IMG/VR virus record: IMGVR_UViG_3300037066_000002 | Coordinates: 1-62,870 of that record | DNA length: 62,870 bases | From: a virus | Lineage: Duplodnaviria; Caudoviricetes | Direction: 5' to 3' (one strand) | Shown: positions 501-62,870 of the stretch, in pieces | Layout: each line of letters starts with the position of its first letter | How positions within the stretch are numbered: position 1 is the stretch's first letter | Notes under the pieces: model-generated | The model's database searches: none | What the model was told of the DNA's origin: nothing | What the model saw: only the letters and a program-made list of their open reading frames with translations | Position numbers and translations under genes: made by a program

Positions 501-538
501 AAACAGAGGCCCGGTATACCGGGAGAAAAGAGGAAAAG

Positions 539-999: not shown

Positions 1000-1025
1000 G
1001 TATACCGGGAGAGGAGGAGAAGAAG

Positions 1026-26310: not shown

Positions 26311-26610
26311 TTACTTCATGCTCCCGCGAATATCCTTGCCCATTCCGGTAGGCCCCTTGATACCGGACTTCCCAGTACCCATCGAAGCCTTCTTCGGGAA
26401 GCCGACGCCGTTTTTCGCGCCCATTCCCTTGCCCATCGATTTCTTTGCCATTCCGAGTCCTGTTCCGCCCGAACTGAGTCCAGGCACCATCGTTGAAATT
26501 GCCGGCGAACCACTCGTCGCGGCAATCGAAGCCGGTTTCGACGGCACGATAGAAACGGAACTGCGTCCCTTATCGCGGACGGTATCGGCCAAAGATTCGC
26601 TGAGTGACAT
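26311..26610 (-). CDS. Basic Gly/Lys/Met-rich small protein
   Basis: Low-complexity basic ORF after portal. Confidence 0.6.
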   Translation of the reverse strand: MSLSESLADTVRDKGRSSVSIVPSKPASIAATSGSPAISTMVPGLSSGGTGLGMAKKSMGKGMGAKNGVGFPKKASMGTGKSGIKGPTGMGKDIRGSMK

Positions 26611-57298: not shown

Positions 57299-57484
57299 AT
57301 GCCGGAACCCGCCGAAGCACGTATCTATTGCGAAGATTGCCGTTTTTACCAGCCAAGTGAGAATTCTGGTTTCTGCCATATCTTCCCTCCTCGAGTTTTG
57401 TATATCAACGCCACGGAGGACCTGTTAACTGCGTGGCCTGAAGTTGATCTGGCAGACTGGTGCGGGGCCGCGAAGGCCAAGTGA
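57299..57484 (+). CDS. Small Cys-rich protein
   Basis: CEDCRFY...C...PP...WP.V...DWCG. Confidence 0.7.
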   Translation: MPEPAEARIYCEDCRFYQPSENSGFCHIFPPRVLYINATEDLLTAWPEVDLADWCGAAKAK

Positions 57485-59226
57485 CATCGCAGCCCGATAA
57501 CGTATCCGATCCACTCGAATTCCTCGCCGCGCAGGCGCTCGCTGATATGACGTCAGCATACAAACTGGAGTTCGCCCTTGAACTTGCGCGCGCCAAAGTT
57601 TCCGAAGATCCAGTCCGCATTGCCGCCGCGAATGAAGTAATCAGAAAACTCCGGTTGAAGCACGATTCGTTCAGGGTAACCGACCTGAACGACCTGATTA
57701 AATCCCAGCGGGTCCGCGCGCTCTCCGAGAAGGCGGACGCCGATAATAAGACGCGCCCGCCAATCGACGTATCGAAGTGTCCGCTGATCTTTTTCGGGAT
57801 GAACGACGATGGAAACGCCGAGCGTTTGCTTGTCCTGCATCGGGACAAAATGCGCTATTGCCCAGAATTTAAGGCATGGCTGATTTGGGATGGAAGGCGA
57901 TGGGAACAGGATAAATTCGGGAAGGCCCAGGAGTTGGCGGTTGACGCGATGCGGCAATTCCTTTCCCAGGTGCGCGACGACGGGAAGATTTACGAATTCG
58001 CCTTGAAGTCTGTGAACCTGAAGGGCGTCACTAACTGCCTGGCATTGGCGGCTCCGCGCGTGGCTGTCTCCGCCGGGAAACTGGACTCATCTCCGTGGTT
58101 GTTCAACTTCCGCAACGGCACCGTCGATCTGCGAACGGGGGCCATGAAGCCGCACGACCCGGCAGACTTGATAACAAAACTGGCCGATCACGATTACAAC
58201 CTGAAAGCTGAATGCCCGCGATGGCGCGAGTTCGTGAACTGGACGATGGGTGGTGGATCTGAGTCCGATGCGGATCGAGTCGGAAGATTTACAGAATACC
58301 TCCAGCGTGCTCTCGGTTACTCGATCACCGGCAGCACGTCCGAGAAGGCGCTATTCATCCCGTGGGGAGAGAAGGGAAATAACGGTAAGACCACAATGCT
58401 TGTCGTGGTCGGTCGCCTGATTCCCGAGTACTCGGGAATGCTGGACGTGGAAACCCTAATGACACGCAGCCGCTCATCCTCAAACGCCAGCGCCGACATC
58501 GCAGACCTGCGCGGCGTCCGATTCGTTCGCACCAGCGAAGCCGAAACGACGCAGCGTTTAGCCCAAGGATTAGTGAAGAAGCTGACCGAGGGGCAAGGAG
58601 AAGTTAAAGCCATCAAGAAGTACGAGAACTGGGTATCGTTCGCCGCTACACACAAAATCTGGATGGACACAAACGGCCGGCCAAGTTTCGAGGCTGAAGA
58701 CAACGCCATGATGAACCGGATGCACCTGATCCCGTTCCCGGCGAGCCTTGCGGAGTCGGATGTAGACCGAACCTTACCCGATGCACTCGTGAGAGACGAA
58801 GCCTGCGGGATACTCGCGTGGCTGGTGCGCGGCGCGGTGAAGTGGTACAAAGACCGGCTCCGCCGACCGGATGAAGCTGTAGCGGCGCGCGATCAGTGGC
58901 GCGATCAGATGGAAGTTGACGACCCCTGGATGACGGTGATCTCCGACTGGATCGTAGCCGAGGAAATGAAGTTCATGGAGACATCCCGATCATTCGGAGC
59001 GGACTCATTCTTCGATTTCACGGTCGCAGATATCCTAACTAAAGCCATGGGAATGAAAGAGAAGGATCAGGATGTTCATGGTAAGGCCGACACCATACGC
59101 GTAGGTAAGATCCTCGGAAGATTCAAGAGCGCCGACGACAAGCCACAGTTCGAGCGTTACCGGCGACCAGCGGCCCCGCGACCGTGGGCATACCGCCGAA
59201 TTAACCAAGCCCCTGATTCCGCTTGA
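57481..59226 (+). CDS. P4/D5-family SF3 helicase (phage/plasmid primase P4 family)
   Basis: DDGNAERL, WLIWDGRRW, NGTVDLRTG, GNNGKT, ADLRGVRFV..SE. Confidence 0.92.
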   Translation: MTSQPDNVSDPLEFLAAQALADMTSAYKLEFALELARAKVSEDPVRIAAANEVIRKLRLKHDSFRVTDLNDLIKSQRVRALSEKADADNKTRPPIDVSKCPLIFFGMNDDGNAERLLVLHRDKMRYCPEFKAWLIWDGRRWEQDKFGKAQELAVDAMRQFLSQVRDDGKIYEFALKSVNLKGVTNCLALAAPRVAVSAGKLDSSPWLFNFRNGTVDLRTGAMKPHDPADLITKLADHDYNLKAECPRWREFVNWTMGGGSESDADRVGRFTEYLQRALGYSITGSTSEKALFIPWGEKGNNGKTTMLVVVGRLIPEYSGMLDVETLMTRSRSSSNASADIADLRGVRFVRTSEAETTQRLAQGLVKKLTEGQGEVKAIKKYENWVSFAATHKIWMDTNGRPSFEAEDNAMMNRMHLIPFPASLAESDVDRTLPDALVRDEACGILAWLVRGAVKWYKDRLRRPDEAVAARDQWRDQMEVDDPWMTVISDWIVAEEMKFMETSRSFGADSFFDFTVADILTKAMGMKEKDQDVHGKADTIRVGKILGRFKSADDKPQFERYRRPAAPRPWAYRRINQAPDSA

Positions 59227-59305
59227 CGAACGCGCCGACAAGTCGTACACTCGAATTTCCTATCGCGCCGCTGCGTCCCACAAGGACCGGCGGCGTTTCT
59301 GCTTT
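59223..59305 (+). promoter_or_regulatory. Promoter plus terminator-like hairpin in front of the origin
   Basis: TTGACG-17-TACACT; CGCCGC...GCGGCG followed by TTTCTGCTTT. Confidence 0.55.
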
Positions 59306-59315
59306 CAAACGGCTC

Positions 59316-59597
59316 TGTCCCACTTAAATCGAAGCCGTCCCACTTTTTGTCCCACTTTCTGTCCCACTTTAACTCCTTTGTTTTGTAGGTTGTCCCACTT
59401 GTCCCACCAAAAACTGTCCAGACTTTTCTATAGGGGCTACATACAGCCCCAGTATCTGTCTGGATGTCTCTCTTTTTCCCTATAGAATACTTTTACTTCT
59501 TTTAAGTGGGACAAGTGGGACAAGTAGGATTCTAAAGAACTTATAGTGGGACAAAAAGTGGGACGTGTAGTGGGACAGAGGCTCAAAAGGTGGGACA
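59316..59597. repeat. Putative replication origin with inverted iteron arrays
   Basis: Six GTCCCAC (59317-59407) facing six GTGGGAC (59506-59596) around an AT-richer core, just after the helicase. Confidence 0.8.
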
Positions 59598-59943
59598 GGC
59601 TCCGACCAGCCCCGAAACCACCCAAAACCGCCACAATCGCCCCACAACGAATTCCGGGGTCCACTGCATCCTCCGACTGCCTGGAAATCGCGTACAGCCA
59701 GCCCTGACGCGAAATACGGGCATTCTATAATCTCCAGCCTGGCCAGATGTTGCCTTTCAACTGAACCGGGTTTTTTGAGTGGGATGGGTGGGGACAGCGG
59801 CCCTCCTCCACCCCCGCCGGCACCCCCTGGACAATCAAAGCGCAATGATAATGAGCATTAGCGCAAGTGGATTTTGTGCGGGAGATAGCGGCCTCGAGCG
59901 GGATCAGGACGAGATAGCGGCCAGCTTGATCACCAACTGGGAA

Positions 59944-60216
59944 TTACGTGTGCCGGCCATTGCGACTTGGTGGTAGATCTCGATCCAGGTCCAACTCGGT
60001 CGGAGTGTACAGCCCGTACTTCCGCTGATACCTCGCAGCTCTGTCACTCCTGCCGATCCTATGATGCCGAGCGAGTTGCACCGATCGTATGTGGGCCGCT
60101 GCTTCCTCTGTAGCGCCCGGTTTGTGCTCGGCTGGTATTGCCTTGCACGCTGAGCAGGGCCTAACACGCTTGCCTTGCCCTACGGTGCCGCACTGCTGAC
60201 AGGTCCAGTGGATCAT
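59944..60216 (-). CDS. Zn-finger hypothetical protein
   Basis: CQQC...CSAC; TAGAAT 6 nt upstream. Confidence 0.55.
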   Translation of the reverse strand: MIHWTCQQCGTVGQGKRVRPCSACKAIPAEHKPGATEEAAAHIRSVQLARHHRIGRSDRAARYQRKYGLYTPTELDLDRDLPPSRNGRHT

Positions 60217-60310
60217 ACAGATATTCTACCTGGTAGAAGTCGTCCGAATTGGCCTAGTCCGTTTCGGACGACTATAAGCAAAACCGCGACCAAGTATAAA
60301 TATTACTCAT

Positions 60311-60410
60311 TTGACCACTTGCGTTAATGTATGAGACACTGTGAATGTCAGGCAGGGCACAGACACCGCGGTTCCGAGCTTCGGCCGGCCGGATAGAAAC
60401 GCGAGTCCTG
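60311..60410 (+). promoter_or_regulatory. Early promoter and structured leader
   Basis: TTGACC-18-GACACT; CAGGGC/GTCCTG, CGCG/CGCG, TCCG/CGGA nested stems. Confidence 0.45.
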
Positions 60411-60455
60411 AGTATATCAAGGCGAGTAGTTTAAGGCATAACCAATGCCGAGAGG

Positions 60456-60770
60456 ATGAAGATGAATAACGTAACAGATAACGTAGACCTGAATCTCAAC
60501 GGTATGCGCGCTGATCTGATCGCGGCTGGTTTCGTGTTCGGTGATCGTGACGGATTCGTGGGCGAACGAATCTATCCAGCCTGGCAGGGCGCATTCGATA
60601 GCAAGCGGCTGGTTTGCCGCGACGTGCGCGTGCTGAATAACGGCACACTGATCGTTCACAATCCATGGACAAACGTGATTGAGGATCACATCGGCTCAGT
60701 TGCAGAGATCGGAGAATACCTCAAGGCGCACGGCAGGTTATGCGAGCCAGGCGCAAACGTTTGGGATTAA
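60456..60770 (+). CDS. Hypothetical early protein
   Basis: ORF with RBS. Confidence 0.65.
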   Translation: MKMNNVTDNVDLNLNGMRADLIAAGFVFGDRDGFVGERIYPAWQGAFDSKRLVCRDVRVLNNGTLIVHNPWTNVIEDHIGSVAEIGEYLKAHGRLCEPGANVWD

Positions 60771-60828
60771 ATAGCGGATGGCAGGTCTTCGGACCTGTAA
60801 CGCACCGGCGCTGAGTCCAAAGTCTCAG
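60770..60828 (+). ncRNA. Twister-like self-cleaving ribozyme (permuted, P5-type)
   Basis: GCG-GAUGG-[CAGGUC-UUCG-GACCUG]-UAA-CGC...CUGAG-UCCAAAGU-CUCAG; loop CCA complementary to UGG. Confidence 0.6.
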
Positions 60829-60862
60829 GCAATGCGTAGCGCTCAGGAGGCGCTTAACTAAC

Positions 60863-61393
60863 ATGACCAACACAGTTTCAACCGAAGTCGAGCATGGATT
60901 GAGTGAGGCGTCTATCGGTGCGGCGCATCCGGGCCTGATAGTCCAGTTGCATTACAAGTGCCGTGACATCGGCTACGGAATTGAGGAAGGCACTGTTGCG
61001 GGCCACTTCACTGGCAACCGTGACAACTACGGCAAATACACCTTCAGGCGCGATGACGGCGGCGCGGACCTGTATCTGTTCGAGGATGAGATTTACACGG
61101 TTGCCCCTGCGATCGCAGCGTTCGGTTTGAGGTCCGGTCGGCGGGAAGCTGGAGATCGGACAATGATCGGCGGAACGGTTCGCAAGATCGGGCCATCTGG
61201 CGGCGGATACATGACCGCTGGTGGCTCTTGGGTGTCGAGTTACTGGAAGAACCCACGGCCATTCACCGGATCGGCAGGCGCACAGGCAAGGCGCAATCGC
61301 CGGCGTGACGTGCGTAAAAACTGGTGGACTGGCATGGGGAATTACACCGATGCCGCGTTTTCACCGTGCGACGGTCGCGGGAGGCTGTACTAA
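60863..61393 (+). CDS. Hypothetical early protein
   Basis: AGGAGG upstream. Confidence 0.65.
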   Translation: MTNTVSTEVEHGLSEASIGAAHPGLIVQLHYKCRDIGYGIEEGTVAGHFTGNRDNYGKYTFRRDDGGADLYLFEDEIYTVAPAIAAFGLRSGRREAGDRTMIGGTVRKIGPSGGGYMTAGGSWVSSYWKNPRPFTGSAGAQARRNRRRDVRKNWWTGMGNYTDAAFSPCDGRGRLY

Positions 61394-61524
61394 TGGCGAC
61401 CTACAAGAGAATCGTGTACAGCGAGCGCACACCAGCGACAAAGAAAACCATCTGGCCGATGTTCTTGGTGGCGGCGTTGGGCGTCGCGGGGTGCGTGTGG
61501 ATAGCGTGCCTGTTGTCTCAGTAA
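61393..61524 (+). CDS. Small single-TM protein
   Basis: TAATG coupling; hydrophobic C-terminus. Confidence 0.5.
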   Translation: MATYKRIVYSERTPATKKTIWPMFLVAALGVAGCVWIACLLSQ

Positions 61525-61602
61525 TTATCCGAATTGACCCCGGCCCGCGAAAGGGCCAGAATGAAACCATTACACCGTCCACCAGACGGAGAGGAAAAGA
61601 AG

Positions 61603-61863
61603 ATGAAAAATCACGCATATATCAACAGCAACCCGTCCGCATTCGACAGCAATTGCGCTACGTGCGACGGAAAGGCGAGAGACTCGGTTCACAATGGCAG
61701 ATATGCCGTGCGGGTAGCCTTCGATAACGGGAATTCGCTCACAACGGAAATCAACGGGAATCCCGCTGACATTCAGGCGTACTACCTCCGCAACGAATTC
61801 AACCTCGGCGACGGAGCAGGCGGCGACCTGATGGCGACGGCTACCGCCGTGGAGTTTATCTAA
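61603..61863 (+). CDS. Hypothetical early protein
   Basis: VAFDNGNSLTTEING...YY...FN; GAGGA RBS. Confidence 0.65.
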   Translation: MKNHAYINSNPSAFDSNCATCDGKARDSVHNGRYAVRVAFDNGNSLTTEINGNPADIQAYYLRNEFNLGDGAGGDLMATATAVEFI

Positions 61864-62216
61864 TGAAGATAACCCGCGAATTTGCACCCGCTGACCGCTA
61901 CCTTTACGACTTCAAAGTATGCACCACCGATAAGGGATGGGCGCAACTGGACACACGCCAGGATGCAAGCTATTTCGGTACGTGGATCAATCCGACCGCC
62001 CGCAAAATCTTCTGCTACTGCGAGGGAGACACCACGCTGACCGAATGCGAGACGGACGCCGAACTGCAAGCCGAACTCGCTACGATGGCAGCATGGAACG
62101 CGGAGAACGGATATCGCGCATTCTCAACGGGCAAGGCAATCGCCATTGACCCCGGCTTTAACGATGACCTGAAAGCCGCTTGCGTGGCGGCTGGCATTGG
62201 TGGTTACCTCCACTAA
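61863..62216 (+). CDS. Conserved phage hypothetical protein
   Basis: DRYLYDF...GWAQLDTRQDASYFGTWINP...YCEGD. Confidence 0.75.
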   Translation: MKITREFAPADRYLYDFKVCTTDKGWAQLDTRQDASYFGTWINPTARKIFCYCEGDTTLTECETDAELQAELATMAAWNAENGYRAFSTGKAIAIDPGFNDDLKAACVAAGIGGYLH

Positions 62217-62221
62217 CGACA

Positions 62222-62358
62222 TTCAGCGGGGTCCAACGGCCATCGCCGCACTCGCCCTGCCAATCGCCTTGCCAGCGTGGTACCTGGCAACAAGCCCGAG
62301 GGCGTCACGCTCGGGCAACGGCGCTAATGGATCACCTGCCCGTGGTAGCGCTGCTGGA
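62222..62358 (+). ncRNA. Candidate multibranch intergenic RNA
   Basis: TTCAGC/GCTGGA enclosing TTGCCAG/CTGGCAA, GCCCGAG/CTCGGGC, GCGCTA/TAGCGC. Confidence 0.45.
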
Positions 62359-62389
62359 GTTTACAGACGATCCAACAAGGAGAGAAAGA

Positions 62390-62718
62390 ATGAATATCGA
62401 AGACCTGACAATCAAGCAGGCGCGGGAACTGGCCGCGCTTTTCGGCGGTGGCTCAACTCCGCCTCGGCATCCGGCAGTAGGCAAATACTGCGTGGTGCGC
62501 ACCTACAGCGCTGGCGTCCACGCTGGAATCTTACAGAGCGCGGAAGGGACGGCGGTTACACTGACCGATTCCCGGCGCATCTGGAACTGGACGGGCGCAT
62601 TGTCGTGCTCTGAGATCGCCGTCTCGGGAATCGCTGGCGGCAAGGTGGCGGTATCTGTACCGACGCAATACCTGACCGAGGCAATCGAGATCATCCCGGC
62701 GACGGCGGAGGCCGAAAA

Positions 62719-62737
<19 letters not shown>
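62390..62737 (+). CDS. DUF6948-like protein
   Basis: LTIKQAREL, GKYCVVRTYSAGVHAG, SRRIWNWTGA.SCSEIA, EAIEIIP; AAGGAG RBS. Confidence 0.75.

Positions 62738-62870
<133 letters not shown>

Follow-up and report, generated by a model that had tools for sequence, protein, structure and literature searches.

A probable type-P5 twister ribozyme, missed by the Rfam models, between two genes of a tailed-phage genome

The window analysed here, the whole 62,870-base stretch of IMG/VR virus record IMGVR_UViG_3300037066_000002 (Duplodnaviria; Caudoviricetes), very probably carries a type-P5 twister ribozyme that is invisible to Rfam and lies in a typical phage intercistronic setting. Judged on its sequence, the element is near certain to belong to the twister family, and by analogy with that family it is quite likely to cleave itself; the site of cleavage and the chemistry of the resulting ends are those that the family predicts. 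The fuller claim, that positions 60774-60828 (+) form a genuine type-P5 twister cutting itself at U60798/A60799 within a message that carries two open reading frames (ORFs), is probable.

The record is complete or nearly so (estimated completeness 99%). The candidate ribozyme lies in a 92-nt spacer (60771-60862) between two plus-strand ORFs (Table 1), both of whose products have almost no homologs. The upstream ORF, whose stop codon lies 3 nt ahead of the first helix strand of the ribozyme, was assigned to no PHROG family and has one homolog (P0006, 77% identity); residues 8-82 of the downstream product form a domain that other proteins carry after a longer N-terminal region. Some 1.2-1.5 kb before the spacer are a primase/helicase gene (57460-59226) and a cluster of GTCCCAC repeats.

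Another phage, L002, with a primase 97% identical, agrees with the window as far as 60476 and from 62218 onward, and has different genes in place of 60476-62218; the twister therefore sits within a swapped gene cassette. No twister was found in the 54-kb L002 record. A blastn search of 59800-62000 against 50,697 phage records gave no match, and IMG/VR yielded neither a locus encoding either flanking protein nor the locus of P0006; a search for the latter in JGI metagenomes gave 492 pattern stretches, none of which was confirmed, and an exact 26-mer of the ribozyme element had no occurrence in metagenome contigs. In four DNA runs from peat and permafrost, the contigs that cover parts of the stretch are identical to it, save for three short pieces of low identity (5-7 differences over 38-39 bases), and contain neither variation within the element nor ends. 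Conservation of this particular copy cannot be assessed, because it has no close homologs and the relative with the 97% identical primase is without the cassette.

Table 1. Features of the spacer and its flanking genes (positions in the window)
Feature	Position	Strand	Remarks
Upstream ORF	60456-60770	+	104 aa, function unknown; stop codon UAA 60768-60770
Match to subgroup covariance models	60770-60833	+	full length, model positions 1-67
P2, 3' strand GCG	60774-60776	+	pairs with CGC 60801-60803
L1, 3' strand GAUGG	60777-60781	+	faces UAA 60798-60800 across P1
P1 hairpin	60782-60797	+	CAGGUC 60782-60787 / GACCUG 60792-60797, loop UUCG
L1, 5' strand UAA	60798-60800	+	aligns to the invariant UAA of our own models and of Rfam Twister-P5
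P2, 5' strand CGC	60801-60803	+	followed by the T2 strand
T2 strand AC	60804-60805	+	
P4 hairpin	60811-60828	+	CUGAG 60811-60815 / CUCAG 60824-60828
Loop L4, UCCAAAGU	60816-60823	+	8 nt, closed by G60815-C60824
GCAA tail	60829-60832	+	directly 3' of P4; recurs in the subgroup, outside the Rfam model
Competitor strand UGCGU	60833-60837	+	complementary to ACGCA 60800-60804
Hairpin AGCGCU-CAGGA-GGCGCU	60838-60854	+	Shine-Dalgarno sequence partly in loop
Downstream ORF	60863-61393	+	176 aa, function unknown; ATG at 60863

Every element that a preliminary description of this DNA had listed was found in the sequence where that description placed it. P1 is capped by a loop, and the arrangement is therefore the circular permutation whose ends lie beyond P4 (type P5). 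G60777 takes the position of the general-base guanine of the twister family, a role for the L1 guanine that we adopt from excerpts of PMC11662667; the predicted scissile bond is U60798/A60799, with A60799 at the general-acid position, and the cleavage chemistry would be that of the family as set out in parts of PMC5408937 and PMC11662667. Two pseudoknots complete the core, both entirely Watson-Crick: T1 joins L4 CCA (60817-60819) to L1 UGG (60779-60781) through U60779-A60819, G60780-C60818 and G60781-C60817, and T2 joins AC to GU (60822-60823) through A60804-U60823 and C60805-G60822. Folded alone, the core (60770-60829) has P2, P1 and P4 as its minimum-energy structure (-22.3 kcal/mol), and the 106-nt spacer stretch has a folding z of -2.35 against shuffles. 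A Shine-Dalgarno sequence (AGGAGG, 60845-60850) stands 12 nt ahead of the downstream ATG at 60863.

Rfam, searched at its gathering scores, had no hits anywhere in the window. At E ≤ 10, segments of 301, 111 and 71 nt returned no twister, only unrelated noise, and RF02684, RF03154 and RF03160 returned none over the whole record; the window thus stays below the gathering threshold of RF02684 (37.6 bits), which served as the operational criterion. The preliminary description had looked to these models for a check and had counted a missing model hit against the identification, a standard that proved too strict because the Rfam models miss this member of the family.

Relatives were sought in IMG/VR with patterns made from the unpaired motifs of the element, the stems being left free. 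The first two patterns (14 and 34 loci) were set aside as giving chance matches, with the exception of one locus, L016; the third, in which P2 was free too and 17 bases taken from the window element were fixed (in GAUGG, UAA, RCC and UCCAAAGY), matched 50 loci. Eight of these share the layout of the window, with a capped P1 and with P1, P2 and P4 strands that are complementary within each locus and mutually different between loci: P1 has 6-10 bp, P2 has two or three of its three pairs, and P4 has 4-6 bp in seven of the eight (in L098 it has 3 bp and an A.C pair beside the loop). The eight also share letters that lie outside the pattern, RGCG before P4 and GCAA after it. The remaining 41 loci, which match the pattern and have nearly no pairing, were rejected, as were three pattern matches in prokaryote genome contigs, with nearly no pairing and no stems; L016 was set apart as a different permutation.

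Five of the eight structured loci pass the gathering score of Rfam Twister-P5, RF02684 (L103, 54.2 bits; L074, 47.2; L084, 45.2; L065, 44.5; L096, 40.5). The printed Rfam consensus (GAGgG, UCcCAAGC) is variable exactly where the subgroup reads U and A. Covariance models built from the relatives found second copies that the pattern had not, at L074:823-906 and L107:2806-2875; five other copies among the ten relatives so collected fall below the Rfam cut-off.

Three covariance models, none of which contains the window, were run over the whole window on both strands with filters off, and each placed its best match at the same position (Table 1). R1, made from two relatives, gave 35.4 bits (E 4e-7; runner-up 17.0 bits); R2, from eight relative sequences, gave 56.6 bits (E 2e-13; runner-up 11.4 bits); R3, restricted to the five Rfam-passing sequences, gave 57.4 bits (E 1.1e-13; runner-up 14.5 bits). 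The score of the window is partly high by construction, because the relatives in the models came from a pattern of this same element.

An alignment of 11 sequences was guided by the model and fitted to it for P1, P2 and P4, with the pseudoknots written in; a MAFFT alignment of the relatives was dropped, as it split GAUGG and P1. Of 208 cells 97.6% pair, and both sides change in 16 of 19 pairs, with a covariation score of 0.971 (0.212 in shuffles; none of 500 shuffles as high), while slid controls pair at 26-38%. Covarying pairs comprise seven of the seven modelled in P1, three of three in P2 and four of the four modelled in P4. All 33 T1 cells pair, an invariance that in eight of the ten relatives arises by construction, because the search pattern fixed those letters; a compensatory exchange of one T1 pair, G-C to A-U (GAUGA with UUCAAAGC), occurs in L107:2806-2875, a copy that the pattern had missed and the model retrieved. 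For the first T2 pair, 9 of the 11 sequences have a standard combination (A-U in five, G-U in three, G-C in one) and the other two have something else; the second pair is an invariant C-G.

The eight relatives were chosen from the 50 matches for having stems. Given these caveats of pattern, selection and alignment, the argument rests on three supports jointly: the split into 8 structured and 41 unstructured loci, the Rfam calls, which are independent, and the two copies that only the models found. On these grounds the twister core, the capped P1, the compensated CCA/UGG pairing of T1 and the predicted cut at U60798/A60799, all put forward in the preliminary description, are strongly supported; the element groups with the sequences that pass Rfam Twister-P5 and keeps the critical nucleotides. 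The second pseudoknot, described there as one nucleotide off the usual register, has the register common to the subgroup, a 3-bp P2 followed by RC.

Among the closest known systems is the type-P5 twister, RF02684 (clan CL00120). The window resembles it in the order of its parts (P2 3' strand, GA-N-GG, capped P1, UAA, P2 5' strand, T2, P4), in an 8-nt L4 of the form UCC-N-AAG-Y and in both pseudoknots; its L4 is the RF02684 consensus UCcCAAGC except at two positions, which are compensated in T1 and T2, and five relatives sharing its variant letters (GAUGG, UCCAAAGY) score above the RF02684 threshold. It differs in P2, which is GCG/CGC with three pairs where the consensus is GCA/UGC with four, in the inner pairs of P4 (CGG/CCG in the consensus) and in T2, which is A-U plus C-G instead of G-C plus C-G.

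Type-P1 twisters (RF03160) share the catalytic core and the pseudoknots; unlike the window, which gives no match to that model, they have their ends in P1, with P2 closing over P4. L016 has the variant letters in this P1-open order. It lies in an unrelated, AT-rich phage contig, where an intergenic stretch contains UAACGC and a 5-bp hairpin with the same UCCAAAGU loop, and GCGGAUGG follows the hairpin instead of preceding it, so that the same parts stand in another circular order. L016:1055-1110 aligns over its full length to RF03160 with 21.8 bits (E 0.013 in a scan of 181 nt), a score far under the model's gathering score (67.2). The hammerhead and further small self-cleaving ribozymes of bacteria are similar in lying beside hypothetical and phage-like genes, as described in excerpts of PMC6765202 and PMC8782182; they have a different fold and active site, and none has an Rfam match in the window.

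The setting is uniform among the copies. All 11 lie between co-directional phage genes, and the upstream stop codon falls between -9 and +16 nt from the model start in every one and between -9 and -1 in ten; two copies have a UGA stop that overlaps GAUGG itself. A listed downstream ORF begins 9-39 nt past the model end in 10 of the 11 copies, and L095 has a ribosome-binding site and an ATG about 25 nt downstream. At two loci (L074 and L107) two twisters flank a single ORF (148 aa at one locus and 145 aa at another). A PHROGs search of 18 flanking proteins of the relatives gave no shared family, its results being limited to families without a known function and weak tail matches, and an all-against-all blastp comparison of the flanking proteins gave no homology across loci. 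According to parts of PMC6765202, bacterial twisters occur near phage genes and have been proposed to process polycistronic transcripts; the same suggestion is made for small self-cleaving RNAs in bacteria in passages of PMC6765202 and PMC8782182.

By analogy, intercistronic self-processing is the simplest reading of this setting. A single message would carry both the ORF at 60456-60770 and that at 60863-61393, and its spacer would fold into P2-L1-P1 plus the P4 hairpin; L4 would then dock into L1 via T1 and onto the strand after P2 via T2, and the RNA would cut itself at U60798/A60799. The upstream product, terminating in a 2',3'-cyclic phosphate, would extend 28 nt past its stop codon and have the P1 hairpin at its end. 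The downstream product would begin with a 5'-hydroxyl at A60799 and would contain the P4 hairpin, the ACGCA/UGCGU helix and the hairpin that displays the ribosome-binding site. The purpose may be to uncouple the stability or the translation of the two cistrons.

The ACGCA/UGCGU helix is also a possible competitor of the active fold. The preliminary description had pointed to a competing strand downstream; it is indeed present in the window (UGCGU, with CAGG at 60844-60847 complementary to CCUG at 60794-60797), but it is not found across the family. In the minimum-energy fold of the full spacer the ACGCA/UGCGU helix replaces P2, and a nearest-neighbour calculation that leaves the pseudoknots out prefers this fold to the active secondary structure by about 2 kcal/mol. 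Complements to the cleavage-site strand were scored within 45 nt after P4, with p values against shuffled downstream sequence. Complements of at least 5 bp occur in 4 of the 11 copies: the window (5 bp, p 0.10), L103 (6 bp, p 0.016), L095 (6 bp, p 0.0085) and L065 (7 bp, p 0.0045). The other seven have no complement of at least 5 bp (3-4 bp, p 0.25-0.99), and the strand is therefore not family-defining; the sequences are suggestive of a feature of a subset. The helix, if formed after cleavage, would by computation pair the new 5' end, leaving 0-2 bases free.

The "switchable" ribozyme of the preliminary description is thus a hypothesis, and two forms of it, neither likely, can be set out. In one, the twister is active and controlled: UGCGU would capture ACGCA and block P2 and T2 unless the cut comes first or, alternatively, a ribosome terminating at UAA 60768-60770 would cover GCG-GAUGG and unfold the catalytic strand, so that processing would be tied to the speed of transcription or to translation of the upstream gene. 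The energetic preference for the competing helix in the full spacer, the complement in 4 of 11 members and the upstream stop that abuts or overlaps the ribozyme 5' strand in 10 of 11 are all consistent with such control, but seven members are without the complement, the competitor is transcribed only after the whole ribozyme, twisters being fast cleavers, and an abutting stop is equally expected from the tight packing of phage genes. We regard it as doubtful that control of this kind operates here.

In the other form, offered tentatively, part of the subgroup would combine the ribozyme with a programmed refolding partner, a strand after P4 complementary to the cleavage-site strand. If so, the strand would, after the cut, close up the new 5'-hydroxyl end in a terminal helix with 0-2 bases unpaired, which would prevent religation and protect the downstream message against decay that depends on the 5' end; the same helix, formed before the cut, would switch the ribozyme off. 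With the abutting stop, cleavage and the fate of the downstream gene would then depend on the kinetics of upstream transcription and translation, and twin twisters around one ORF (L074, L107) would cut out a message for a single gene, with ends both defined and protected.

It is also conceivable, with a distinctly smaller probability, that the element is an inactive relic, the descendant of a twister in which a 3-bp P2 or the competing helix makes cleavage inefficient; its intercistronic hairpins would then do no more than stabilise the message or display the ribosome-binding site. The P2 of the window consists of three pairs plus an A.A, short of the four-pair P2 that typifies the consensus and is not taken here as a defining trait; the element is unscored by the models of Rfam itself, the competing helix has an advantage of about 2 kcal/mol in folding without pseudoknots, and the copy is a singleton, with no close relatives in which purifying selection might be seen. 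Excerpts of PMC5408937 describe a P2 of 4 bp and relay the suggestion that the active site may be disturbed when the length of P2 is altered. Only 2 of the 11 aligned sequences, however, could form a fourth P2 pair, and the 3-bp P2 is also seen in relatives scoring above the Rfam threshold (L065, L096 and L074:1375-1441). In a high-throughput assay of natural type-P1 twisters, as reported in parts of PMC11662667, about 94% of candidates cleaved; imperfect P1, P2 and P4, changes of length and wobble pairs in the pseudoknots were tolerated, and, according to those parts, cleavage did not depend on how long or how perfect P2 was. Strong loss of activity is reported there on changing the A after the cut, A2 or the L1 guanine, or on the change A6G in L4. 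All of these critical positions (A1, A2, the L1 guanine and A6 of L4) are kept in the window, and both pseudoknots are wholly Watson-Crick, which argues for an active twister against a decayed one.

Chance resemblance, meaning that ordinary GC-rich hairpins between genes (an RNase III site or an attenuator, for instance) match a loosely applied twister template by accident, would accord with a match first made by eye that allowed for a "compensatory variant" and a pairing "one nt off", with the modest z-score and with the lack of an Rfam hit in the window, but it is effectively refuted by the E value of about 1e-13 from window-free models whose runner-ups reach 11-17 bits, by a layout, spacing and extra conserved bases equal to those of the sequences that pass Twister-P5, and by the absence of a T-run after every hairpin.

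The wider proposal of an RNA-processing system for early expression, built by the preliminary description on this element and on further RNAs at 60353, 62222 and 352, is unsupported. Rfam at E ≤ 5 gave no hits in 59700-62870 or 1-2500, and the twister models R2 and R3 found no second copy within the window. The three stretches are conserved in L002, where two of them are repeated at cassette borders; they are intergenic modules, conserved or repeated, that border a swapped gene cassette.

Twister ribozymes have been known since 2014, and these findings leave the definition of a twister unchanged. Their role in bacteria and phages is described as still open in the excerpted text of PMC6765202. 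Rfam misses the window and five other copies, and phage twisters are therefore likely to be under-counted. The uniform setting of all 11 copies fits intercistronic processing, and two features offer functional leads: a strand able to pair the new 5' end, in 4 of the 11 copies, and the pairs of twisters around one gene at two loci.

The twister ribozyme of type P5 lies in the spacer between two ORFs, and two IMG/VR phage loci (L074 and L107) carry a pair of twisters about 500 nt apart with a single ORF between them. The bracketed ORF in L107 has a paralog, 30% identical, which is the ORF that follows the second twister. An intergenic candidate for a type-P1 twister, lacking P3 and with a weak P1, was seen on the + strand of another, AT-rich phage contig (L016, 1055-1110); it matches the Rfam Twister-P1 model RF03160 at 21.8 bits (E 0.013), far short of the model's gathering score (67.2). 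Variant letters (GAUGG, the 3' strand of L1, and UCCAAAGU) are common to this candidate and the twister of the window. The second-best match in the window to the covariance models built from relatives, on the - strand at 26334-26390, scores 11.4-14.5 bits and contains GAUGG and a hairpin but no L4 motif; this weak match is most likely noise.

Short repeats are found in the window. Just 3' of the primase/helicase gene, 13 of the 16 GTCCCAC heptamers are clustered at 59275-59596 around an AT-rich centre, an arrangement suggestive of an origin or operator of the iteron type. Another repeat, GTATACCGGGAGA, contains the palindrome GGTATACC and occurs three times (0.06 expected), each copy immediately 5' of the ribosome-binding site of one of successive small ORFs on the + strand; it may be a shared leader, operator or processing site.

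Repeated elements and paired twisters
Feature	Location	Strand	Remarks
Twister pair, L074	823-906 and 1375-1441	-	Brackets one ORF (148 aa)
Twister pair, L107	2806-2875 and 3360-3431	-	Brackets one ORF (145 aa)
GTCCCAC heptamers	Window 59275-59407	+	n = 7
GTCCCAC heptamers	Window 59506-59596	-	n = 6
GTATACCGGGAGA copies	Window 514-526, 758-770, 1000-1012		Variant near 1428

An ORF of Gly-Ser, Gly-Tyr and Gly-Asp dipeptide repeats (62719-62870) is cut off where the record ends and resumes at 1-341, and the start of the window repeats the sequence from 62745 on, with a different number of repeat units. This suggests that the genome is circular or terminally redundant and that the break in the record falls within this repeat.

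Comparison with L002, a close relative without the twister, shows that window 60476-62218 is a mosaic cassette: its gene content differs from that of L002 9002-11092, and both flanks are about 93% identical. L002 has two copies each of the intergenic modules at window 62218-62314 and 342-540, placed at borders of gene blocks in the manner of recombination junctions. The protein encoded downstream of the twister (60863-61393) has a domain, at residues about 8-82, that shares 55-88% identity with internal segments of three proteins from metagenomes (180, 204 and 280 aa). The N-termini of the two closest are longer, which places the twister-bearing spacer at a domain-level recombination border.
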